Of a stretch of 32,000 nt of DNA, positions 1,422 through 29,742 are shown piece by piece. The notes under the pieces are model-generated. The model had not been told where the DNA came from and did no database searches. It was given only the letters and a program-made list of their open reading frames with translations. Every line of letters begins with the position of its first letter. Within the stretch, counting starts at the first letter, position 1. Source of the DNA: Vallitalea sp. (GTDB lineage: Bacteria; Bacillota; Clostridia; Lachnospirales; Vallitaleaceae); contig JAOASG010000044.1 in assembly GCA_025210235.1 (NCBI GenBank), forward strand, positions 193,075 to 225,074, written 5' to 3'. The translations under genes and the position numbers were made by a program.

Positions 1422-1613
1422 TTATTGACCCATTAAATTTTGTTCTGCTCTTTCAATTAATTTCTTAACCATATATCCACCAACTGAACCATTTTGAGCT
1501 GATGTTAAGTCACCATTGTAACCTTGTTTCAAAGGTACTCCAATTTCATTTGCTACTTCATATTTAAATTTTTCTAATGCTTCTCTTGCTTGTGGTACTA
1601 CATTCTTTGCCAT
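1422..1613 (-). CDS. alpha/beta-type small acid-soluble spore protein
   Basis: ORF 1422..1628. KFKYEVANEIGVPL...GSVGGYMVKKLIE matches the two conserved SASP blocks. ATG at 1613 lies 8 nt after a GGAGGG RBS. A forespore-type CATTGTA -10-like hexamer is at 1633-1639 (minus strand). Confidence 0.9.
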   Translation of the reverse strand: MAKNVVPQAREALEKFKYEVANEIGVPLKQGYNGDLTSAQNGSVGGYMVKKLIERAEQNLMGQ

Positions 1614-1792
1614 ACCTAGACCCTCCAATTCTTACAATGCTAAATTTTAGTGTCCTCTTCGAAGAGATGTAATTAGGTTACGATATTATTATATGTATAT
1701 TAATTAATATTACACTAGTAAATACTGTATTTAAAACTAAAAAAATGCAATTTTAATAATTAATTTTTTTTGGAATTTGTGGTTTGACGTGT

Positions 1793-2183
1793 GGCTCGGG
1801 GAGGGTATATGGTATTATAATAACTTGCCTTACCTGTGAAGCGGCCGGTCAGCGTTATTCTAATACCATATACCCTTGTCATGGATACGTTATTGCAAAC
1901 GATAGTTTGTGGGGTCAAAGGTATTTTCAATAGTTGATGATAGCTACTATTTTTAAATATCACCACTAGCCTAATACTAGCCAAGTAGGTTGATAGGTAT
2001 TAAAAAGTAGTGACTTTAAATCTTCCTTAGAAAACACTTTGTGAATGGAAAAATGGTTTCCGTTAAGAAAATTAAATGTTTGACTGCAAGGAGTTTTTAA
2101 TTTTTAGGAAACCATTTTGGAATGAACTTAGTTTTTCTTAGGAACGATTTAACTGAACGGATTTTTAATACCTATCAACCTAC
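1793..2183 (+). ncRNA. unclassified ORF-free structured element, copy A (hairpin H1 + linker + ~200-nt rod)
   Basis: No credible ORF. Homologous to 21683-22171. H1 at 1803-1875 has 22-nt arms. The rod has a perfect 22-bp base (1985-2006 with 2162-2183) and a perfect 12-bp inner stem (2050-2061 with 2107-2118). Plus strand is only tentatively favoured, because the conserved internal loops are purine-rich on that strand. Confidence 0.6.
1803..1875. repeat. conserved hairpin repeat H1, copy A
   Basis: Arms GGGTATATGGTATTATAATAAC (1803-1824) and GTTATTCTAATACCATATACCC (1854-1875) pair at 21 of 22 positions. The 29-nt loop contains GAAGCGGCCGGTC. Differs from 21693-21766 by 2 substitutions and 1 indel. 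Confidence 0.85.
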
Positions 2184-2224
2184 GACCGTCTTGTACAGTA
2201 TTTAGTTTGACGAAAACCTCAAGT

Positions 2225-4279
2225 TTATAAAAATATCTGTTTAATACTCTCCGAAAAATACTTTAAAATCTTTTCATTCAAATATTTATACTGATCACTC
2301 TCTAGATGTTTATCCTCATCTAATATTTGCCTAGCCAAGCTATTAGCCTCTTTTAATACATCCATATCTCTAAATATATCTCCAATATTAAATTCTGGAA
2401 GTCCATGTTGTTTTAAGCCAAATACATCTCCTGGTCCTCTAAGTTTTAAATCATATTCAGAAATTACAAATCCATCTGTATACTTACACATAATATCCAT
2501 TCTTTTTTTAGTAATATTATTTTTTGAATCTGTAATTAGTATGCAATAAGATTTATGCTTTCCTCTTCCTACTCTACCTCTAAGCTGGTGAAGTCCTGCG
2601 AGTCCAAATCTCTCTGCATTTTCTATTATCATCATAGTTGCATTAGGAACATTGACACCAACTTCTATTACTGTTGTAGATACAAGTACATTAATCTCAT
2701 TATCACTAAATCTCTCCATTATTTCATTTTTTTCTTTTGCTTTCATTTTTCCATGTAAATAATCAATCTTAGCGCTACTATCAATTTTATCTTTTAATTT
2801 TTCAGTATATGAAATTACAGACTCAAGTTCTAATGTATCAGAATCTTCTACCATGGGACAAATAATATATACTTGTCTTCCACTATTAATTTCTCTCTGA
2901 ATAAAAGAATATATACGTTCTCTATAAGAAGTATTTACTGCATAAGTTTCTATTTTTTGCCTTCCTGGAGGCATTTCATCGATTATAGAAACATCCATAT
3001 CTCCATATACTATAAGAGCTAATGTCCTTGGTATTGGTGTTGCACTCATAACAAGAATATGTGGATAATTGCCTTTTTCCGCTAAGATTTTCCTTTGTTT
3101 TACTCCAAATCTATGTTGTTCATCCGTTATTACTAATGCAAGATTTTTAAACTCAACTTTTTCTTGAATGATAGCATGAGTCCCAATTAATATATTAATT
3201 TCACCTGATTTTAACTTATTATAAATGATTTCTTTATTTTTTTTAGTAACAGATCCAACTAATAATTCAACTTTTATTCCTAATGGAGTTAATAACTCTG
3301 AGATTGATTTAAAGTGCTGTTTTGCTAATACTTCAGTTGGAGCCATCATACATCCTTGATAATTATTATCTGCTATTATAACTAGTGCTAAAGCTGCTAT
3401 AATAGTTTTACCTGAACCAACATCTCCTTGGACCAATCTATTCATAGTTTTATTAGACATCAAGTCCTCTTTTATTTCACTCCATACTTTTTGTTGAGCA
3501 CCAGTTAAAGAATACGGTAACGATTTAATTAATTTATTTTCACTGTCTCCTAAAGATATATTAAAATTATTAATAATATCATTAGAATGACCTTTTATTA
3601 AATTCAATCCTAATGCAAACAGTAAAAATTCATCAAAAACTAGTCTCCTTCGGGCAATTTCAAGAGATTGAAAACTATCTGGATTATGAATTTGTTTAAT
3701 AGAATAATTATATTCTGCTAAATTGTACTTAGCTTTAATACTATTATTCAAAAAATCTTTCAAGCTATTATCAGTATACTCTATAGCTTGTCTAATAATA
3801 GTACTTATGAAATTCATAGAAATATCTTTTGTAAGCGGATATATCGGCTTTAGTCTATTTATATTAGTTTTATATTTTGACACCTCTATCATTTCTGGTG
3901 AGCTCATTTGAATCATATTATATTTATTTTCAACCTTACCTTTAAACACATATTTGCTTCCAATTTTTAATTTATTTTTTAGATATGGTTGAGAAAACCA
4001 AATAGCAAATATTTCTCCAGTATTGTCCCTAATTTTAGTTTTAGTTAAAATCAAAGTTTTCTTTCTTATGTTTTGTGTTGATAAACATATTGTACCTTCT
4101 ATAACATTTATTTCATTCATTTTAATATCTGCTATTTTAGTTATGGGCATAATTGTTTCATAGTCTCTAGGATAATAGTTTAATAAATCTTCTATTGTTT
4201 GTATTCTAGCTTTTTGTAATACTTTACTTTTTTTATCTCCTATTCCCTTTAAAACCGTTACAGATAAATTTGTATTCAT
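2225..4279 (-). CDS. recG: ATP-dependent DNA helicase RecG
   Basis: ORF 2225..4330. Wedge-domain N-terminus, Walker A GDVGSGKT, DEQH box, QLRGRVGRG motif VI. Start trimmed to ATG 4279 (MNTNLSVTVLKGIG), 7 nt after GGAGG. The upstream ORF extension overlaps a terminator hairpin. Confidence 0.95.
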   Translation of the reverse strand: MNTNLSVTVLKGIGDKKSKVLQKARIQTIEDLLNYYPRDYETIMPITKIADIKMNEINVIEGTICLSTQNIRKKTLILTKTKIRDNTGEIFAIWFSQPYLKNKLKIGSKYVFKGKVENKYNMIQMSSPEMIEVSKYKTNINRLKPIYPLTKDISMNFISTIIRQAIEYTDNSLKDFLNNSIKAKYNLAEYNYSIKQIHNPDSFQSLEIARRRLVFDEFLLFALGLNLIKGHSNDIINNFNISLGDSENKLIKSLPYSLTGAQQKVWSEIKEDLMSNKTMNRLVQGDVGSGKTIIAALALVIIADNNYQGCMMAPTEVLAKQHFKSISELLTPLGIKVELLVGSVTKKNKEIIYNKLKSGEINILIGTHAIIQEKVEFKNLALVITDEQHRFGVKQRKILAEKGNYPHILVMSATPIPRTLALIVYGDMDVSIIDEMPPGRQKIETYAVNTSYRERIYSFIQREINSGRQVYIICPMVEDSDTLELESVISYTEKLKDKIDSSAKIDYLHGKMKAKEKNEIMERFSDNEINVLVSTTVIEVGVNVPNATMMIIENAERFGLAGLHQLRGRVGRGKHKSYCILITDSKNNITKKRMDIMCKYTDGFVISEYDLKLRGPGDVFGLKQHGLPEFNIGDIFRDMDVLKEANSLARQILDEDKHLESDQYKYLNEKILKYFSESIKQIFL

Positions 4280-4299
4280 ATAAACCTCCACTTTAAAGG

Positions 4300-4327
4300 C
4301 AAAATAGACTGTCTCTATAAGACAGTC
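4300..4327 (-). terminator. putative terminator/attenuator between yloV and recG
   Basis: GACTGTCT (4307-4314) pairs with AGACAGTC (4320-4327) around a 5-nt loop, followed on the minus strand by TATTTT. Confidence 0.5.
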
Positions 4328-4370
4328 CAAATTTCACTAATAATATTAGAATGTTTAGCTTCGTAACATA

Positions 4371-6041
4371 TTATTCTACTGATAGTATATAATAATATAG
4401 TGGTTGACCACCATAATGAACTTCTACATCACAATCTTCGTAATTTTCTTCTATATATTTTCCGAATTCATCTGCAATATCCTTATCTACTTCTTGACCA
4501 TAGTATATAATAACTAACTCACTTTCATCGTTTATTAACTGTTTAACTAATTCCTTAGCCGCAATATCTAAATCTTTTTGAACTGAAAGAATTTTATCAT
4601 TACCTATTCCAAGGATATCTCCTTCTCTAATTTCTTTCTCATCGATGCTAGTATCTCTAACAGCAAAGGTTAGCTGCCCCGTAGAAACGTCTAACATAGA
4701 TTCTTCCATATTTTCAATATTTTCTTCAATATCTTTCTCAAATTCAAAGCTAATCATAGCAGAAATACCTTGTGGTATTGATTTTGAGTTAATAACAATA
4801 ACATTTTTATCTTCACATAATTCACTTGCTTGTTTAGCCGCTAATATTATATTCTTATTATTAGGTAGAATAAATACATTATCAGCATTTACTTCTTTGA
4901 TTGCGTTCAACACATCCTCTGTACTAGGATTCATAGTTTGACCGCCTTTAATAATATAATCAACTCCTAAGCTCCTAAAAATCTCGTTTAATCCTTCTCC
5001 AATAGATACTGCAACAAAACCTATTTCTTTTCTTTCCTCAGGTATTGGAGTCGTTATATTAACAGCTTCGTGTTCTTCTTTAGAGATAACTCTAGCTGAA
5101 TGTTGTTGCCTCATATTATCAATCTTTAAGTTCACTAATTCCCCTAATTCTAACGCTTTTTGAATAGCTAAACCTGGGTCATTAGTATGTACATGAACTT
5201 TAATAATATCATCATAACCAGCAACCACAATTGAATCACCTAAAGTTTCTAAGTAATCTCTAAAAGTGTAACTATCCTCTTCAGTGCTAGCTGGATTATT
5301 TACATTAATAATAAATTCTGTACAATAACCAAATTTGATGTTTTCAGTTGCTAAACTACCATCTAAATGTACATCATTTTCTTTTGTAAGTGTATCTGAA
5401 GCAATGTCAAAATCTAATTCTTTTCCTTCTTCAAGTGATTTAAGTGCACCTCTAAAGATATATATAAGTCCTTGTCCACCAGCGTCTACAACACCTGCTT
5501 GCTTTAAAACATCTAACATTTCTGGAGTTTTTTGGAGGACTTCTTCTGCATGTTTAATACCTTCTCTAAAAACAAACTCAACATCGTTTGAATCCACTGA
5601 TAACATAGATACTCTTTCAGCCATTTCCCTAGCTACTGTAAGTATTGTCCCTTCTTTTGGCTTCATAACTGCTCTATACGCAGTTTCTACACCTTTTTGA
5701 AAAGATTGTGCTAAAACCAAAGTATCAATTCTTTCATTTTCTCCTATTACTTTTGCAAAACCTCTAAGTAACTGAGACAATATAACACCTGAATTCCCTC
5801 TAGCTCCTCTAAGTGAACCAGATGAAATTGCTTTAGCTACTTCTTTAATATTATTAAAATCACAACTGCTTACTTCTTTAGCTGCTGACAATATTGTCAA
5901 AGACATATTTGTTCCTGTATCTCCATCTGGAACTGGAAAGACGTTTAATTTGTCAACATACGCCTTCTTAGATTCCAATTTTTTTGCTCCTGAAACAAAC
6001 ATTTTCTTTAATGTAATTGAATCTATATATTCTATAGCCAC
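4371..6041 (-). CDS. yloV: DAK2-domain protein, YloV/FakA-like (fatty acid kinase subunit family)
   Basis: 556 aa. N-terminal Dak2 signature VFPVPDGDTGTNM...GARGNSGVILSQ. Conserved position after asp23/yloU and before recG. Confidence 0.88.
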   Translation of the reverse strand: MAIEYIDSITLKKMFVSGAKKLESKKAYVDKLNVFPVPDGDTGTNMSLTILSAAKEVSSCDFNNIKEVAKAISSGSLRGARGNSGVILSQLLRGFAKVIGENERIDTLVLAQSFQKGVETAYRAVMKPKEGTILTVAREMAERVSMLSVDSNDVEFVFREGIKHAEEVLQKTPEMLDVLKQAGVVDAGGQGLIYIFRGALKSLEEGKELDFDIASDTLTKENDVHLDGSLATENIKFGYCTEFIINVNNPASTEEDSYTFRDYLETLGDSIVVAGYDDIIKVHVHTNDPGLAIQKALELGELVNLKIDNMRQQHSARVISKEEHEAVNITTPIPEERKEIGFVAVSIGEGLNEIFRSLGVDYIIKGGQTMNPSTEDVLNAIKEVNADNVFILPNNKNIILAAKQASELCEDKNVIVINSKSIPQGISAMISFEFEKDIEENIENMEESMLDVSTGQLTFAVRDTSIDEKEIREGDILGIGNDKILSVQKDLDIAAKELVKQLINDESELVIIYYGQEVDKDIADEFGKYIEENYEDCDVEVHYGGQPLYYYILSVE

Positions 6042-11503: not shown

Positions 11504-12226
11504 TCATTCCCCGTTTATTAATACCGTTGCTATATTATCAGTCCCACCATTATTAAGAGCAAGAGTAATTAATTCATCTAGTTTATCTTCTTGTTTTTTA
11601 TTAGAACCAACTACATTAAGAATTGTTTCATCTTCAAGCATATTAGTTAATCCATCTGAACACATTAGAATATATTCTTTTTCTGTAATATTTAAAGTAA
11701 ATATATCACATTCAATACTTTCATCTACACCAACTGCTCTAGTAATTATATTTTTATTTGGATGATTCTTTCCTTCTAATCTCGTAAGTTTTCCAGTACT
11801 AATCATTTCTTCAACCAAAGAATGATCTATCGTAATTTGTTTTATAGTATCATTTATTAAGTATAATCTACTGTCCCCAACATTAGCCACATACAATTTA
11901 TCATTCTCAATTGAGCATACTATAAAAGTAGTACCCATTCCAGAATAAGCTTCATCTGTTACTGATTTATTATAAATAAATTTATTTATGTAATTAATTC
12001 CATTGATAAAAGCATTAGATATATAGCTATCATTATTTGCCTCTATATATTTAACAAATTCTTCAACAGCACACATTGAAGCATATTCTCCAGCTTTGTG
12101 ACCTCCCATTCCATCTGCAATAATATATAGATTAGGAAGGCTTCCAATTTTATCATTAGAAATGTAAAAACTATCCTGATTAATATCTCTTATTTTCCCT
12201 ATATGGGTTTTTCCAATAGCTTTCAT
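11504..12226 (-). CDS. prpC: PP2C-family Ser/Thr phosphatase (Stp/PrpC)
   Basis: 240 aa. DGMGGH and GGTDNIT-like motifs. Paired with prkC. Confidence 0.92.
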   Translation of the reverse strand: MKAIGKTHIGKIRDINQDSFYISNDKIGSLPNLYIIADGMGGHKAGEYASMCAVEEFVKYIEANNDSYISNAFINGINYINKFIYNKSVTDEAYSGMGTTFIVCSIENDKLYVANVGDSRLYLINDTIKQITIDHSLVEEMISTGKLTRLEGKNHPNKNIITRAVGVDESIECDIFTLNITEKEYILMCSDGLTNMLEDETILNVVGSNKKQEDKLDELITLALNNGGTDNIATVLINGE

Positions 12227-12256
12227 ATAACCTCCTATAATTAAGTAATTGCGATA

Positions 12257-13291
12257 CTATTTTTTATTATATGTCCTTCTAAGTTGACCACATGCTGCAT
12301 TTATATCTCCACCTAATTCACGTCTAATAGTAGTAGTAATCTTGTTATTTTCCAACACATCTCTAAATCTATAAATAGAATCCTTATTGCTATGTCTATA
12401 ATTTCTTTCACTTATCTCATTAACAGGTATTAAATTTACGTGGCACAACATCCCTTTTAAAACCTTTGATAATTCTAAAGCACATTCTTTTGAATCATTT
12501 ACTCCTCTAACTAAACTATATTCAAATGTTATTCTTCTTTTCGTTTTATCTATATAATCCTTACAAGCATTTATTAATTGCTCATAATCATAAATATTTG
12601 CTACAGGCATTAGAGTCTTTCTAATAGTATTATTAGGAGCATGTAAAGATATTGCTAGTGTAATTTGTAGATTTTCTTCCGCCAATTCATATATTTTATC
12701 TATTATACCACAAGTTGATACAGTTATGTTTCTTGCACCAATATTCATTCCTTCTTTTGAATTAATTATTTCAATAAATTTTATTAAAACATTATAATTA
12801 TCCAGTGGCTCACCAGTTCCCATAACAACTATATTTGATATTTTTTTACCACTTAATCTATTTATTTCATATACTTGTCCTAACATTTCAGATACTAAAA
12901 GCTGTCGTTCTAGTCCACCAATTGTTGAAGCACAAAATTTACATCCCATTCTACATCCAACTTGAGAAGATATACAAACTGAATTACCATGCTTATAAGA
13001 CATTAAAACACTTTCAACAACATTATGATCATTTAATTCAAATAAATATTTAATAGTACCATCTTTTGACTTAACTTGCCTAATTTTATTAAGCTTAGTT
13101 ATATTACATTTTTCTTCTAATTTATCTTGTAAAACCTTAGGTAAATTTGTCATTTCATTAAAAGAACAAACTCTTTTTTCATGTAACCATTGATATATTT
13201 GCTTAGATCTAAATTTCTTCTCATCGATACTTAACATTAAATCTGATAATTCTTCTATAGTCATTGATAAAATATCAATCTTATTATTCAT
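12257..13291 (-). CDS. rlmN: 23S rRNA/tRNA adenine-C2 methyltransferase, radical SAM
   Basis: 344 aa. CRMGCKFC radical-SAM cluster motif. RlmN-like N- and C-termini. Confidence 0.93.
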   Translation of the reverse strand: MNNKIDILSMTIEELSDLMLSIDEKKFRSKQIYQWLHEKRVCSFNEMTNLPKVLQDKLEEKCNITKLNKIRQVKSKDGTIKYLFELNDHNVVESVLMSYKHGNSVCISSQVGCRMGCKFCASTIGGLERQLLVSEMLGQVYEINRLSGKKISNIVVMGTGEPLDNYNVLIKFIEIINSKEGMNIGARNITVSTCGIIDKIYELAEENLQITLAISLHAPNNTIRKTLMPVANIYDYEQLINACKDYIDKTKRRITFEYSLVRGVNDSKECALELSKVLKGMLCHVNLIPVNEISERNYRHSNKDSIYRFRDVLENNKITTTIRRELGGDINAACGQLRRTYNKK

Positions 13292-21497: not shown

Positions 21498-21682
21498 TAC
21501 AATCACTCATTTCTAATATATTTCCACATAAATAAATGTAAAAACATATTTTAGTTTCTTTTCTTTACATAATATCCTTAGGGTATTATACCCTACTAAG
21601 CATATCTAGTCAACCGAACTAATTTATGTCTAAACTAATTCTAAGATAAATCATTCCAATATAAATCCATTAGTTCACATAT

Positions 21683-22171
21683 AGCTCGTGATGGGTATAT
21701 GGTATTATAATAACTTGCCTTACCCTGAGAAGCGGCCGGTCTGCGTTATTCTAATACCATATACCCTTTTGAGGGTACGTTATTGCATACTTGAATATGA
21801 AGTATTTATCGTGAGTACCTAGGCTTGACTATTAGCATACTAGACAAGTAAGTATTCCTTTTTAGTTAACTTAAGTAATAACTATTATATCTTTTTCAGT
21901 TTAGTCTGCTAAGCCCTTCTTTAATATTGACTTACTACCACATTAATTAGCCCAGCCAATGGGTATTTATTTATGGAAGTTTTATTTATAAATGATTCGC
22001 TAGACTTACTTAATGAATGGAAATGAAATTTTCCGTGAAAAAAACACGACGTTTTTTTAGCTCATCTGAAGCACGGACGCTGAATATGAGCGTTAGGAAA
22101 ATTTCATTGGAATGAATTTAGTAAGTCACAAGAATTTATCCTAAAACTGGAATAAATAAATACCCATTGGC
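21683..22171 (+). ncRNA. unclassified ORF-free structured element, copy B (paralogue of 1793-2183)
   Basis: H1 at 21693-21766. Conserved linker GGTACGTTATTGCATAC. An extra ~95-nt domain is closed by AGTAAGT/ACTTACT. The rod has a perfect 20-bp base (21955-21974 with 22152-22171), an 8-bp stem (22003-22010 with 22120-22127) and a perfect 12-bp stem (22023-22034 with 22096-22107). Strand is tentative. Confidence 0.6.
21693..21766. repeat. conserved hairpin repeat H1, copy B
   Basis: Same 22-nt arms as copy A (21693-21714 and 21745-21766). 30-nt loop TTGCCTTACCCTGAGAAGCGGCCGGTCTGC. Confidence 0.85.
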
Positions 22172-22201
22172 GGAAGACTATGTTGATATTAATCTTCTAA
22201 T

Positions 22202-24190
22202 CTATTTGAATTGATTTTCATGTTTTTTAAAGAAATCAAAACGTGGCTCTAAATATTTAAGTTTATGATCAGTAGCATTTTCAGCAAAATAATGTATAGG
22301 TTCAAAAATATAATCCCAGTTCCATATATTCGCATTTACATTTAAATATTCTCTTACCAATTCACAGCTGCTTGGAGCAATTGGATGTATTAATGTAATA
22401 GCAGTACGCACGCCATGAAAAGCATCTATTAATACTTGTTTTCTCAAATCATTATCATCATTGGTATCTGCTTGTTTCATTTTATTAACCCAGTACTTAT
22501 TAAGTTTACGAATATAACTATCTAAAACATATATAATTCTATGAAAATCATGATTATACATATGTTTTTCATAATTTAAAACAGCATCTTCAGATAGCTT
22601 TCTTATCTCTTCGCTAACTTCTCCTTGTGGAATACTTGAATCAAAATATTTTTGTGCCGTATAGAAACTAGATCTAATAATTCTATTAAATACATTAGTA
22701 AGTAAGTTTCCGTCTTTTAAAACAGTATCATTTCCTGTTCTCTCTTCTTCATCCATAAAAGCTTCCGGCATAAAGCTAACACTTTTCTTAGCTAATCCTA
22801 GACTTAAAAAGTGCATTCTTAACTGTTCATGTGTGTAATGATCAAGTAATTCATGAGCCATAGGTGGTTTAATTTCACTACTACTACTTGCTTTTTTATC
22901 CATAAATAATACATGATTATTAGGAATTAAATGAGGTAAATTAATATTATCAAAATTTAAGTCTTCTTTGTTTTTATCAAGCAACGCTAAAAACATTCCC
23001 ATTTCTGCAATACCATAAAAATATATATTATCTTCACCTATAAATTGGTATACTTTAGAATCTTTTGAGTTAAACCATTCTTTCCAAGCATCTTGATCTT
23101 TACCAATAGATTCAAGATATGTTCTTGCAAAAGATATTGGTGCCCATAAAGATTCAGGCCAAACCCAAAAAGTTAAATCTTTTAAATCTTCTTTTTCTGG
23201 AACACTAATACCCCAATCAATATTACCAGATAATCTAAATGGAACTAATGTTTTACCTGTTCTAAATCTTAATCCCATTTCATCAAATACTTTTCTAGCC
23301 TTATCTCTATCATCTAAATTATCAAATACAAAAGTAATAGAAGGTTTTTTTGGTTCATCAATCATTGTATGTTTAGGTAATTTCTCTTGTATACTAGATA
23401 TATCACCTTCTATTTGCTTACGTTTAACATAAATAATTGGTGGTTTTAGAAATTCTTCTATAGTTTTTAATAAATATTTACGACAATTAGAATTTTTCTT
23501 AAGGTATTCTATATACTCTTTCAAAACATCTGTATATTCATCTAATTTGAAGTACCAATTTGTAACTTCTCTAAGTTCTGGTGTTTTTCCTGATAAAACA
23601 CTTTTAGGATCAATTAACTCACTAGGCATATACATATGTCCTAATGAACATTCATCAGCATATCCTTTATCAGAGTTACAACCTTCTATAGGACATTTTC
23701 CTACTACTTGTCTACCATTTAATAAAACTTTTTCTTCTGGATCATAGAACTGTGGAGTAGATAATTTAACTAGATAGTCATTATCATATAACTTATTAAA
23801 TATCTCATCAGATACTTGTTTATGAATTTCACTAGCTCTATCTAATGCTGAAGCAGCATATAAATTAAGATTAATTTCATATTTATCTAGTACTTCTTTT
23901 TGTTTTATATGATTTTCTCTTACATAATCTTCAATGGAACCTTCATATTGATTTTCATCAACTAATTTTTTATAACTTGCTAAAATAGGAGAACCATAAC
24001 AATCCGTCCCAGAAACAAAAATAACATTTTCTTCTCCAATTCTGTCTCTTAAAAATCTTGCATAAGTATCTGCATGAATAAATACCCCGCCAACATGACC
24101 AAAATGTAATTCTTTATTACCATAAGGCATACCTGCTGTTACAATAGCTCTTTTTGGAAAAATAGGTCTTTTTCTTGTATACTCTTTCAT
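22202..24190 (-). CDS. metG: methionine--tRNA ligase-like class I aminoacyl-tRNA synthetase (divergent, long form)
   Basis: ORF 22202..24235. HFGH (HIGH) motif and GTDCYGSPI. The zinc knuckle CPIEGC...ECSLGH and PSELIDPKSVLSG align by eye to E. coli-type MetRS. KASSS replaces KMSKS. Start trimmed to ATG 24190 (MKEYTRKRP), 7 nt after AAGGAG. The ORF extension overlaps the T-box terminator. Confidence 0.8.
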   Translation of the reverse strand: MKEYTRKRPIFPKRAIVTAGMPYGNKELHFGHVGGVFIHADTYARFLRDRIGEENVIFVSGTDCYGSPILASYKKLVDENQYEGSIEDYVRENHIKQKEVLDKYEINLNLYAASALDRASEIHKQVSDEIFNKLYDNDYLVKLSTPQFYDPEEKVLLNGRQVVGKCPIEGCNSDKGYADECSLGHMYMPSELIDPKSVLSGKTPELREVTNWYFKLDEYTDVLKEYIEYLKKNSNCRKYLLKTIEEFLKPPIIYVKRKQIEGDISSIQEKLPKHTMIDEPKKPSITFVFDNLDDRDKARKVFDEMGLRFRTGKTLVPFRLSGNIDWGISVPEKEDLKDLTFWVWPESLWAPISFARTYLESIGKDQDAWKEWFNSKDSKVYQFIGEDNIYFYGIAEMGMFLALLDKNKEDLNFDNINLPHLIPNNHVLFMDKKASSSSEIKPPMAHELLDHYTHEQLRMHFLSLGLAKKSVSFMPEAFMDEEERTGNDTVLKDGNLLTNVFNRIIRSSFYTAQKYFDSSIPQGEVSEEIRKLSEDAVLNYEKHMYNHDFHRIIYVLDSYIRKLNKYWVNKMKQADTNDDNDLRKQVLIDAFHGVRTAITLIHPIAPSSCELVREYLNVNANIWNWDYIFEPIHYFAENATDHKLKYLEPRFDFFKKHENQFK

Positions 24191-24232
24191 AATAAGCTCC
24201 TTATATAGTTTGTTTTTAAAATTTTTTAAATA

Positions 24233-24288
24233 CAAAAAACGCTCCTACAAACATAGTATATGTTAAAAAAACATTAGTTTGTAGGGGC
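24233..24288 (-). terminator. T-box intrinsic terminator
   Basis: CCCCTACAAAC (24277-24287) pairs with GTTTGTAGGAGC (24241-24252), followed by GTTTTTTG on the minus strand. Confidence 0.85.
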
Positions 24289-24568
24289 GAATTGTATCGC
24301 GATACCACCCTAATTTATCAGTATGTCACCATACCAATCTCATCAAGTACATAGTATACTCAAGTTCTGTAACGTGAACAAACGTTATATCATCACTTAC
24401 TATATAATTAAGAAGAATTTAATAAATAACATCTCTTCTACTATAATAAGATCCGTATACGGCTTAGAGTCTTGGTTCATTAAATATCCACTATTCCTTT
24501 TTCAGCAACAGGAACTCTCTATAAGCTTTTATTTAACTACTCTTCTCGTCATTGCCTTTATCTTCATT
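24233..24568 (-). promoter_or_regulatory. T-box leader (tRNA-sensing transcription attenuator) controlling the MetRS-like gene
   Basis: Minus strand shows GACGAGAAGAGTAG (GA/K-turn plus AGTA), AGAGAG bulge, distal TTCC..GGAA loop and T-box sequence AAATTAGGGTGGTATCGCG (24296-24316). A terminator competes with the T-box. Confidence 0.9.
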
Positions 24569-25966: not shown

Positions 25967-26110
25967 TAATATCAGCTCCTTAATTATATTGTATTTATAT
26001 TTATAAGCAACCATTAATAAATATAAAAATTATAGTTGATTTTTTGTATTCTTTTTTGATTTTTTTATAAAATAATATCATCATTGAAATTAATATGACA
26101 GTTTAACTAG

Positions 26111-26123
26111 AATTGTATACAAT
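26111..26123. promoter_or_regulatory. palindromic operator-like site AATTGTATACAAT (site 1)
   Basis: Perfect palindrome ATTGTATACAAT. The same core recurs at 26249-26262 and a half-site CTTGTATAC at 26184-26192. All lie in the 500-nt untranslated region upstream of citrate synthase. Confidence 0.4.
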
Positions 26124-26248
26124 CGTGCATATCATTAATTTGAGTCTTAGTTGCTCTAGAATTCGACATTTACAAAATTAATACTTGTATACTATTGTAA
26201 TATAAAATTCTCCATTTTGCAAGTATTATTCTGTTAAACGAATTGAAT

Positions 26249-26262
26249 AATTGTATACAATT
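26249..26262. promoter_or_regulatory. palindromic operator-like site AATTGTATACAATT (site 2)
   Basis: 14-bp perfect palindrome, 138 bp from site 1. Confidence 0.4.
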
Positions 26263-26443
26263 TATTAGTTTAAATATTCCAACTATTTTTACCTCACATT
26301 ATTTAGTATATTTATACGTCATTACCTTTTACTCCATTCTCCCCTCAAGAAATTTTTATAATAATATCTATCATATCTAAATAAAAACTCAATTTCTATT
26401 ATATGCTATTTTATAATTTTAATGTTATTCTTTTATAAATAGC

Positions 26444-26493
26444 AAAAAAATCATGGTGATATATAAGTTTTTACTAATATCACCATGATTTTT
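26444..26493. terminator. bidirectional rho-independent terminator ending the GH112 operon
   Basis: AATCATGGTGATAT (26449-26462) pairs with ATATCACCATGATT (26477-26490), a perfect 14-bp stem flanked by A7 on the left and a T-run on the right. Confidence 0.88.
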
Positions 26494-26515
26494 ACATAAT
26501 TATACTACTTAACGA

Positions 26516-26680
26516 TTATCTACTTTTTCTATTGTATAAATATAATTCAAATAAAATTCCAAAAAGGCCTATCAACATAATAGTTAATCCAAAATAACTC
26601 TTTATGCTTTGCCCCTTTGCAACTAAATAAATTGAAAGAACAAAAAAAACAGCCACACATAAAGCTTTAATTTTTTTCAT
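26516..26680 (-). CDS. hypothetical small membrane protein (54 aa)
   Basis: Hand-translated: MKKIKALCVAVFFVLSIYLVAKGQSIKSYFGLTIMLIGLFGILFELYLYNRKSR. Its ATG (26678-26680) abuts the GH112 stop codon (26681). Two hydrophobic segments. It sits inside the operon, before the terminator. Confidence 0.5.
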   Translation of the reverse strand: MKKIKALCVAVFFVLSIYLVAKGQSIKSYFGLTIMLIGLFGILFELYLYNRKSR

Positions 26681-28858: not shown

Positions 28859-29742
28859 TCACTCCTTTACTCCTCCAATACTCATTCCCTGTGTTAATCT
28901 TTTTTGTACTAATATATACAAAATTAATGTTGGGATCATTACTATTACCAACCCTGCATACATTTGCCCATAATTAGCTGCTGCCTTTTGAGATTGCATT
29001 AAATTTATTAATCCTACTGGTAAAGTTTTGGATTCTCCTGGCATCAAGGTTAAAGCTAAAATATATTCATTCCAAAAAGCTAAGAAATTAAATAATATAA
29101 CTGTTATTATGCTAGGTCTTACCATAGGAATCATTATACTAATCATTGTTCTAAAATATCCACAACCATCTATATATGCTGCTTCTTCATAAGTTCTGGA
29201 TGTTGTCTTAAAATAATTAGATATTAAATAGATTGTAAAAGGTATTGCAGAAGCAGCATAAACAATCGCTAATACAACAATATTATCTATAAATAGTCCT
29301 CTTCCTATAATCTTCATAAAATATCTATCCCAACCTAATAACATTAAAAAGATTGGAACAACGATATAGTTTACGTTAATAAAAAGACCAGCCATAAATA
29401 ATCTGTTTAGGATTTTTTTCCCTTAAATTCAAATCTAGCTAAAACATATGATGCTGGAATAGCTACCACCAACAATATAACTAACCCTAAAGATGTTACT
29501 ATAATTGAATTTAAAAAATACTCTCCCATTCTTGCTTTTTCAATAGCATCTATAAAGTTTTTAAAACAAAATCCTTTTGGTATAGCCCAAGGGTTCCCAT
29601 AAAACTCTGAATTTTCTTTTATTGACGCCATAAATACCCATAATACTGGTACTATTATACTAATAGCTAAAGTTATTAATGCTACATATATAAATAATCT
29701 ATAAATATTACTCGCTTTTATCAATTTCTTTTTCTTATTCAT
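28859..29742 (-). pseudogene. ABC sugar transporter permease (MalG/LacG-like) interrupted by a frameshift at an A7 run
   Basis: ORFs 29407..29742 (111 aa N-terminal part) and 28859..29395 (178 aa C-terminal part with an EAA-like loop, EEAAYIDGCGYFRT) together make one ~290-aa permease. They join if the minus-strand A7 (29413-29419) is read as A8 or by a -1 slip. Confidence 0.75.

Follow-up and report, generated by a model that had tools for sequence, protein, structure and literature searches.

A 32,000-nt stretch of the genome of Vallitalea sp. (contig JAOASG010000044.1, positions 193,075 to 225,074; hereafter the window, in whose coordinates positions are given) holds two gene-free spacers that can fold into extensive hairpins, which raises the question of whether they carry two copies of one RNA element or something of another kind. 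A preliminary description had taken them for a single element in two paralogous copies, made of a hairpin (H1) followed by a long imperfect hairpin (the rod), with a selected fold that set it apart from a mobile repeat. In this study, we compared copy A (1775-2205) and copy B (21663-22199) with each other, with related genomes, with Rfam and with known repeats. The results showed that H1 and the rod are separable families, because each occurs alone in other Vallitalea species, so the idea of one element in two paralogous copies has to be given up. The modules occur only in this marine clostridial genus, at different intergenic sites in different species, and are dispersed alone or together, in either orientation and sometimes as pairs or arrays. 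Each element may well be a mosaic of two separable, dispersed hairpin repeat modules, similar to repetitive extragenic palindromes (REPs), bacterial interspersed mosaic elements (BIMEs) and REPINs, or to miniature inverted-repeat transposable elements (MITEs). The dispersed modules are possibly also active as RNA.

Copies A and B share two hairpin modules

We aligned the two copies with each other and compared the scores with those of shuffled sequences. The H1 module together with the following GGnTACGTTATTGCAnAC was 90% identical over 108 nt (z 55), but the rods were only ~50% identical while still alike (z 7.8), and the middle segments, tails and outer flanks showed no similarity (z ~0). 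The two look-alike gene-free stretches are thus real. The heavy divergence with retained pairing that had been described for everything outside H1 holds for the rods; the middle segments show no similarity at all. Since the modules are separable, H1 can be 90% identical between the copies and the rods 50%. Folding energies lay at z -7.0 to -9.7 relative to shuffles for both strands of both copies, and the GC content of the rods was 35%, compared with 29% in the window. No open reading frame (ORF) is conserved between copies A and B, as had been stated, because the reading frames diverge at a 1-nt indel in the H1 apex.

The arms of the copy A H1 hairpin are 23 nt long and 96% complementary with a single T·C mismatch, and they enclose a GC-rich apex of 29 nt that is homologous to hairpin apices of V. 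guaymasensis and V. sediminicola; the arms in copy B are 22 nt long and 95% complementary (Table 1). The spacer that follows H1 in copy A resembles neither that of copy B (z -0.06) nor the 5' regions of other rods. A third, degenerate rod considered within the copy B spacer was dropped, since that spacer is not significantly structured (fold z -0.9) and gave no match to the rod profile hidden Markov model (HMM) apart from the tag. The perfect outer stem of rod A measures 22 bp and that of rod B 20 bp, and the apex of rod B consists of two hairpins with loops CACGACG and CACGGACG. The motif ACTA.....ATACTAG.CAAGTA.G, which had been assigned to both copies, is indeed a family-conserved 5' tag in copy A; its proposed counterpart in copy B (21829-21853) found no support, the family HMM match and the tag of that copy starting at 21938.

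The copy A composite as a whole lies between the two copies of an 8-bp direct repeat, GTTTGACG, the sole direct repeat of at least 8 bp in its flanks, where the chance of such a repeat was estimated at ~0.02-0.04. The corresponding positions of copy B agree at only 6 of 8 bases (GTTCACAT/GTTGATAT).

The rod fold is under selection

We aligned six rods and assessed their 74 predicted pairs against two controls, 500 column shuffles and alignments in which the partners were slid by 1-3 columns. The results showed that 92.8% of the cells formed standard pairs, compared with 77.6% in shuffles. Both partners had changed in 43 of the 74 pairs, against 16.7 in shuffles and at most 14 in the slid controls; none of the 500 shuffles reached the observed number, and double changes were about four times as frequent as single-sided ones. 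The rod fold is under selection, in agreement with the preliminary description. G·T outnumbered A·C 21:6 by cells, favouring the + strand of the element, and 13:3 by columns (p ~0.01) when a near-duplicate and an outlier were dropped. The unpaired bases were likewise G-rich on the + strand (16:5 and 19:9). The wobble bias and the G-rich unpaired bases therefore indicate that one strand folds, either as RNA or as single-stranded DNA.

The stems are nearly all Watson-Crick, with G-U in 2/75 and 1/79 pairs. Two unpaired motif pairs are conserved, GUGA(Y) opposite (A/C)UGAAC (GUGAC/CUGAAC in rod A) and GAAUGGAAA opposite UUGGAAUGAAC, and going by their bases both could form tandem sheared G·A pairs. 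The conserved ends comprise the 5' tag CACUAGCC...AGUAGG and the 3' tail ACG..GUCUUG.A. On the folding strand, the rods contain 5-6 GGA triplets each, where 2-3 would be expected. The rod of locus L437 has a perfect helix in place of the GAAUGGAAA loop and no GGA enrichment.

We also looked for expression signals. In the 200 nt that precede the six rods, no sigma-70-type promoter recurred at a consistent position, and for four of the six none was found at all. No intrinsic terminator follows rod A or rod B on the + strand, and the hairpins are not followed by a U-tract on either strand. The - strand of H1 contains TTCACA or TTCTCA, a 15-16-nt spacer and TATAAT; we did not retain this as a promoter, as it may be incidental to the AT-rich stem.

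Rods without H1 in other Vallitalea species

Relatives of the rod were found with a pattern built from its conserved loop motifs and then with a profile HMM, and the loci were read in ~20-kb stretches around three marker genes. Metagenome contigs L430 and L431, from a Vallitalea near V. pronyensis (ArgRS 90% identical), carry a rod between the 3' end of argS and the parS/parA region, antisense to the genes. V. pronyensis itself (L433) has two rods head-to-head in the argS-parA gap, P1 (-) and P2 (+), and a further Vallitalea (L437) has one in the gidB-noc gap. All rods outside the window lack H1. The rod HMM had no match in V. guaymasensis (L438), V. sediminicola (L439), the sister-species loci described below or the metagenome-assembled genome (MAG) L434, whose argS-parA gap is 375 nt long and without a rod. 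The copies are homologous across at least four genomes (HMM E 1e-34 to 1e-72). Rod A is 67-73% identical to the V. pronyensis-group rods and nearer to them than to rod B, which is 46-52% identical to all other rods. At four of the five loci, the folding strand is antisense to co-directional genes.

Clusters of the parS consensus (TGTTTCACGTGAAACA) lie upstream of parA beside the rods of L430 and L433, and none occurs in the window. For the V. pronyensis-group and L437 rods, the flanking 200 nt on the 5' side are strongly enriched in C and depleted of G on the element strand (C 47-54 against G 16-18) and in this resemble Rho-loading sites, a feature not seen at the window copies. About 350 nt from the L437 rod, nested perfect stems of 23 and 21 bp close two small hairpins, one with the loop AUGGAC (an AYGGAY motif), whose 5' side GCGCCUUCC is like an H1-type apex; this structure has no Rfam match. 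A motif GGATAC..TATTGCAA.AC upstream of the L430 rod was put down to chance, as it is absent at P1 and P2 and the 5' regions cannot be aligned.

H1-type hairpins without rods in other Vallitalea species

The H1 HMM matched twice in the window, four times in V. guaymasensis and twice in V. sediminicola; the V. guaymasensis and V. sediminicola loci have no rods. In both species the hairpins (four and two, respectively) lie in the argS-parA gap, alternating with parS sites, and have perfect 21-22-bp arms around a 27-nt apex (HMM E 1e-22 to 1e-37). The stem sequences are unrelated between lineages and are still 95-100% complementary, and the conserved parts are the apex GCCTTAC...AAG...CGGTC..CG and the 5' flank GGCT.C..GG. 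The hairpins of these two species are preceded by (C)GATAGTAAT or CGTAGTAAT.

In V. guaymasensis (CP058561.1), a 254-nt unit of parS and an H1-type hairpin is tandemly triplicated and a fourth hairpin is inverted; the flanks are nearly C-free on that strand (G 35 : C 0 in 100 nt). Two otherwise identical units of V. sediminicola (L439; Table 1) differ by exactly the inner 51 nt of the hairpin, and this difference is bounded by a 10-bp repeat, TAACTAGTTA. It is due either to an insertion/excision or to a slippage deletion.

In total, we counted seven rod copies at five loci and eight H1 copies at four loci, in at least five genomes, with an inverted pair and a tandem array among them. The restriction of the modules to one genus, at varying sites, therefore points to an uncatalogued dispersed repeat family and not to a conserved housekeeping RNA.

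Wider searches gave no further members. The exact 22-base H1-apex pattern had no match in 185,579 species genomes, the H1-arm pattern with a free apex none in the JGI metagenome collection, and the combined H1-motif and tag pattern none at all. Against viral contigs, three 15-17-base patterns gave chance matches only (no BLAST similarity in 359 loci), and the strict rod pattern hit only a phage coding region, three times. BLAST of copies A and B and their relatives found no match in phage and plasmid collections, nor was any copy A or B similarity seen in 46 related loci. The concatenated six-frame translation of H1, used as a proxy nucleotide query against 5.8 billion proteins, had no match either.

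Three sister species lack copy A at the recG-SASP site

The window has a close counterpart in a 150-kb JGI contig (99.6% identical), and the nearest genomes are those of V. maricola and Vallitalea sp. McD1.25 (Stp 78% identical). We compared the gap between recG and the small acid-soluble spore protein (SASP) gene of the source species, an uncultured Vallitalea (L360), with those of three sister species, namely the co-occurring Vallitalea sp. MAG L420, V. maricola (L366) and Vallitalea sp. McD1.25 (L367). The gap measures 612 nt in the source species and 154-188 nt in the sister species. The difference is a block of ~420-460 nt (424-458 nt) that matches element A, and only the SASP-distal part of the gap differs; the conserved region upstream of the SASP gene (~1614-1742) is intact and copy A lies beyond it. 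Copy A is thus an insertion of ~420-460 nt relative to the three sister species. The site of copy B adjoins a synteny break, and this comparison covers the copy A site.

Short-read contigs of the same species from Logan and JGI consistently break off within H1 or at the outer rod arm (L361, L362, L412, L418, L419 and L423-L427; L418 and L419 inside the H1 of copy B). The elements thus fragment short-read assemblies of this MAG lineage, which matters for binning and synteny analyses. The contrast with a mobile repeat drawn in the preliminary description does not survive these observations: element A is missing in three sister species, copies lie at non-orthologous sites in both orientations and in pairs or arrays, and short-read assemblies break in H1 and at the rod.

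Comparison with Rfam families and known repeats

A scan of the window with Rfam returned no family at gathering score, in line with the preliminary description, which had assigned the copies to no family. 6S, SRP, tmRNA, RNase P, OLE, ROOL, GOLLD, raiA, HEARO, T-box and group I/II introns gave nothing at E<=10 for either copy. With lax filters on a 731-nt stretch, rod B matched TwoAYGGAY (RF01731) at 21987-22143 (+) with 40.6 bits (cut-off 43, E 5.8e-5), a match absent from the whole-window scans that arises because the apex of rod B holds two hairpins. Copy A had no TwoAYGGAY match at E<=10, its best models being plant microRNAs, and the V. pronyensis and L437 rods had none at E<=1. A plant microRNA family matched rod P1 with 62 bits (E 3e-10), which shows that covariance-model statistics are inflated by long hairpins, and the near-match of rod B is weak evidence.

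TwoAYGGAY is an orphan motif without known function. It has very long closing stems, with a 24-bp P1 noted (Weinberg et al. 2010, PMC2864571), and was later proposed to be a CsrA binder, with tandem G·A pairs reported in its stem (PMC4333381). In Psychromonas ingrahamii it lies within longer multi-copy repeats together with other conserved modules, and a human-gut example sits within a rod of ~330 nt (PMC2864571 supplement, TwoAYGGAY.sto); TwoAYGGAY itself may be a dispersed repeat. The Vallitalea rods resemble it in the long near-perfect stems closing on apical hairpins (rods A and B both have the long P1), in the tandem G·A pairs that their loops could form and in the clostridial host. They differ in the two AYGGAY loops: rod A has a single apical hairpin with the loop GCAAGG, as the V. 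pronyensis-group rods also have a single one without AYGGAY, and in rod B one loop (ACGGAC) fits whereas ACGAC does not. The conserved internal loops, 5' tag and 3' tail fall outside the TwoAYGGAY model, and H1 has no counterpart there.

REP units are 20-40 bp long with 5-13-bp stems and a GTAG tag, and are reported to occur mostly downstream of coding regions and to function as RNA hairpins; GTAG repeats have been reported in Proteobacteria, Cyanobacteria, Chloroflexi and the PVC group, with Firmicutes unmentioned (PMC3733652). Like REPs, BIMEs and REPINs with their RAYT (TnpA-REP) enzyme, the Vallitalea modules are extragenic, near gene 3' ends and dispersed as single copies, inverted dimers or mosaic clusters (PMC3733652, PMC3337134). 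Their presence varies between related species in the same way, an RNA-hairpin role is possible for both, and the REP hairpin is recognised as single-stranded DNA. In size they exceed REPs by far, with an H1 stem of 21-23 bp (hairpin 75 nt) and a rod stem of ~75 bp (hairpin ~200 nt). As to a GTAG foot, the rods A, L430, L431, P2 and L437 begin with AGTAGG, AGTAGA or AGTAAA, whereas P1 begins with AGTATA and B with CAGCCA, and the H1 hairpins of the window have no such tag. The apical and internal loops are also more elaborate than those of REPs, and the host is a Firmicute.

Bacterial MITE-like repeats (Correia/CREE, ERIC, RUP, BOX) are intergenic, non-coding and 100-400 nt long, have long hairpins and insertion polymorphism, and can carry promoter-like or processing signals. 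The modules share with them the intergenic position, the long hairpin and the insertion polymorphism. In MITEs, the terminal inverted repeats are constant within a family and, like the target duplications, correspond to those of a parent insertion sequence (IS), whereas the ends of the rods vary from copy to copy, with compensatory changes, and no parent IS was identified. Integron attC sites (57-141 nt, with R''/L''-L'/R' core sites, beside cassettes and an integrase) are similar in that the structure is kept while the sequence is largely free, one strand folds and certain unpaired positions are conserved; we rejected attC because of the wrong size, the lack of core sites and the absence of adjoining cassettes or an integrase. 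Other candidates were rejected as well: 6S RNA (no central bubble, no Rfam match); retron msr/msd, IscB/TnpB omega RNA and IS110 bridge RNA (no adjacent reverse transcriptase, nuclease or recombinase, and loops that are conserved, not programmable); an inverton (the whole rod is palindromic, not its ends alone); an intrinsic terminator (no U-tract on either strand); and a CsrA sponge (GGA enrichment of just ~2-fold, absent in one copy).

Dispersed repeat or RNA gene

Under the dispersed-repeat reading, a spacer that separates two co-directional genes would have taken up both modules. The first module (H1 type, ~130 nt) is a near-perfect Watson-Crick stem of 21-23 bp, free in sequence between lineages, under a conserved 27-29-nt apex (GCCUUAC...AAG...CGGUC..CG) and behind a short conserved 5' flank (GGCU.C..GG); module 2 (rod type, ~250 nt) consists of the 5' tag, the imperfect ~75-bp hairpin with G/A-rich loops, the apical hairpin and the 3' tail. 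The unit that is propagated or selected would be the hairpin of one strand (the + strand of the window) as a single-stranded nucleic acid, and the modules, being non-autonomous, would depend on a trans-acting factor for copying or maintenance, for example an enzyme of the HUH/Y1 type that recognises hairpins and is encoded elsewhere in the genome. The mosaic would then arise as independent modules accumulate in the same permissive spacers, and once transcribed the hairpins could act as RNA too. A dispersed hairpin repeat fits at least as well as an RNA gene, because the stems are nearly pure Watson-Crick and no promoter or terminator is conserved. Several observations weigh against this reading. 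The conserved asymmetric G/A-rich loops and the strand-biased wobbles are classic traits of structured RNA. At the orthologous site of L430 and V. pronyensis, the rod is 84% identical while the flanks cannot be aligned, and this in-situ conservation suggests purifying selection, which better fits a host-useful RNA. The folding strand at four of the five loci is the leading-strand template, opposite to the preference of IS200/IS605-type transposition. No transposase, RAYT or partner gene was found in the ~20-kb stretches around the three marker genes, and the outer ends of A and B have neither a common terminal inverted repeat nor a consistent target duplication. H1 was absent from the protein, genome and metagenome searches, and the modules are therefore rare overall.

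In the main rival reading, the rods are genes of one family that encodes a structured small RNA (sRNA) of ~250 nt acting in trans, a distant single-apical-hairpin relative of TwoAYGGAY that binds and titrates a protein through its tandem-G·A loops and GGA loops, for example an L7Ae-like K-turn/GA-motif binder or CsrA, with H1 as a lineage-specific 5' accessory domain or a neighbouring element. We hold this possible but clearly short of probable. Beside the in-situ conservation, it draws on the strong covariation, the strand-specific wobbles, the purine-rich unpaired bases, the loops able to form tandem sheared G·A pairs, the GGA count, the raised GC content, the score of copy B against RF01731 and the long closing stems and proposed CsrA binding of TwoAYGGAY. 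It has to contend with the lack of a conserved promoter or terminator, with conservation that stops ~25 nt either side of the hairpin, and with perfect 20-23-bp duplexes that would be RNase III substrates. Presence or absence at a site between species, the head-to-head pair and the clustering with other hairpin repeats also speak against an RNA gene, the A-type rods have no TwoAYGGAY match, the L437 rod has neither the GAAUGGAAA loop nor the GGA enrichment, and long hairpins inflate the scores, as seen for rod P1. The dispersed-repeat and trans-acting sRNA readings are not mutually exclusive.

It is improbable that the hairpins act in cis, blocking read-through or antisense transcription or stabilising 3' ends as REP and ERIC do. 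The rods do lie 30-41 nt past stop codons, no intrinsic terminator is predicted for recG or the MetRS-like gene, both strands fold almost equally well, and REPs are reported to be located mostly downstream of coding regions and to function as RNA hairpins (PMC3733652). However, the wobble bias marks the strand antisense to the flanking genes at four of five loci, the element is missing from this site in three sister species, no U-tract is present on either strand, and copy P2 is oppositely oriented. We think it still more improbable that copies A and B arose by transposition of a single unit that comprises H1, spacer and rod and duplicates 8 bp of its target. The exact GTTTGACG repeat of copy A, an enclosed length that matches the 424-458-nt insertion and the same module order and orientation in A and B would suit such a unit, but H1 at 90%, rods at 50% and unrelated spacers cannot come from the copying of a single unit; copy B has no clean duplication, rods and H1 are separate elsewhere, and the repeat itself has an estimated chance of a few per cent. 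That the hairpins are chance or neutral AT-rich palindromes, with no function or mobility, has become hardly credible: AT-rich intergenic DNA does readily form hairpins and Rfam microRNA models match on hairpin shape alone, but minimum free energies at z -7 to -9.7, homologues in at least four genomes and covariation far above both controls effectively refute it already.

Genomic context

Both elements lie just past the 3' ends of recG and the MetRS-like class I aminoacyl-tRNA synthetase gene, as had been reported, and on the opposite strand: rod A stops 41 nt past the recG stop codon and rod B 30 nt past that of the MetRS-like gene. The two long gene-free gaps of the housekeeping block were confirmed, and the account was corrected by a third (666 nt) outside the block, which contains neither rod nor H1 (Table 1). 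The T-box leader upstream of the MetRS-like gene is the sole real Rfam-like match in the window and lies outside both elements. Two adjacent ORFs, of 178 and 111 aa, resemble the two parts of a single ABC-transporter permease interrupted by a frameshift or stop, and may be a pseudogene or an assembly error. A palindrome, TAGGGTATTATACCCTA, which has GGTATTATA in common with the H1 arm and is also conserved in Vallitalea sp. McD1.25, coincides in part with the best sigma-70-like promoter of the YicC-like gene.

Table 1. Coordinates of the modules, their parts and other features in the window and at related loci
Locus	Feature	Coordinates	Strand	Remarks
Window	H1 module, copy A	1775..1906	+	H1-family HMM match E 1.3e-24; 5' flank GGCTCGGGG; 3' motif GGATACGTTATTGCAAAC with TACGTTATTGCA core at 1886-1897
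Window	H1 hairpin, copy A	1802..1876	+	75 nt; arms 1802-1824/1854-1876; apex 1825-1853
Window	Direct repeat GTTTGACG, left copy	1782..1789	.	8 bp; possible target-site duplication; weak
Window	Spacer, copy A	1907..1960	+	H1 module to rod module; non-conserved
Window	Rod module, copy A	1961..2205	+	Rod HMM match 1961-2211, E 9e-61; 3' tail ACGACCGTCTTGTACAGTATTTAG to 2205
Window	5' tag, rod A	1962..1989	+	CACCACTAGCCTAATACTAGCCAAGTAGG
Window	Rod hairpin, copy A	1985..2183	+	Imperfect, ~75 bp; arms 1985-2061/2107-2183; apical hairpin ~2062-2106
Window	Direct repeat GTTTGACG, right copy	2205..2212	.	Begins where rod A homology to other rods stops
Window	H1 module, copy B	21663..21797	+	H1 HMM E 6e-28; TACGTTATTGCA at 21776-21787
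Window	H1 hairpin, copy B	21693..21767	+	Arms 21693-21714/21745-21766
Window	Spacer, copy B	21798..21937	+	Non-conserved
Window	Rod module, copy B	21938..22199	+	Divergent subfamily; rod HMM E 2.4e-40; 5' tag ~21938-21955
Window	Rod hairpin, copy B	21955..22171	+	Arms 21955-21984/22142-22171 and 22003-22034/22096-22127; apex 22035-22095
Window	Alpha/beta-type SASP gene	1422..1613	-	PF00269
Window	recG	2225..4330	-	100% match to RecG of Vallitalea sp. MAG
Window	Palindrome TAGGGTATTATACCCTA	21580..21596		
Window	MetRS-like gene	22202..24235	-	677 aa
Window	T-box leader	24280..24561	-	90.2 bits (cut-off 93), E 1e-18
Window	Third gene-free gap	26015..26680		
Window	Terminator-like hairpin and T-run	26441..26495	-	Within third gap
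Window	Split permease ORFs	28859..29742	-	
L430	parS cluster	4930..5040		
L430	C-rich stretch	5350..5548		
L433	C-rich stretches	12130..12330; 12500..12700		
L433	parS cluster	13068..13175		
L437	C-rich stretch	3992..4190		
L437	Nested stems with two hairpins	4373..4557		
L438	Triplicated parS and H1-type unit	11780..12440		
L438	Fourth, inverted H1-type hairpin	12865..12933		
L439	Units differing by 51 nt	11834..11854; 12010..12078		

Implications

These findings describe two uncatalogued families of structured intergenic elements, which are candidates for Rfam or for repeat databases, and the rod covariation is unusually clean for so few sequences. They are also a cautionary case: an apparent single element in two copies turned out to be a mosaic of modules of different ages, and near-threshold covariance-model matches cannot be relied on when the sequence is a long hairpin. 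The modules are present in two cultured species with complete genomes, the rods in V. pronyensis (CP058649.1) and the H1-type hairpins in V. guaymasensis.

Two bolder outcomes are conceivable, though we would not count on them. Either the rod is a new class of structured RNA of ~250 nt, defined by its 5' CACUAGCC..AGUAGG tag, its pair of tandem-G·A internal loops, its conserved apical hairpin and its 3' tail, related to TwoAYGGAY in architecture only, which would act in trans by binding or sequestering a protein and would itself be copied around Vallitalea genomes; or rod and H1 are REPIN-like substrates of an HUH enzyme that recognises hairpins, and would be the first such substrates to be described in Clostridia. 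The architectural link, which consists in long and perfect closing stems, in tandem G·A pairs and in a position within multi-copy repeats, makes the orphan TwoAYGGAY motif of 2010 testable. If true, a new RNA class or HUH substrate of this kind would provide a function for the orphan TwoAYGGAY-type rods of gut Clostridia.

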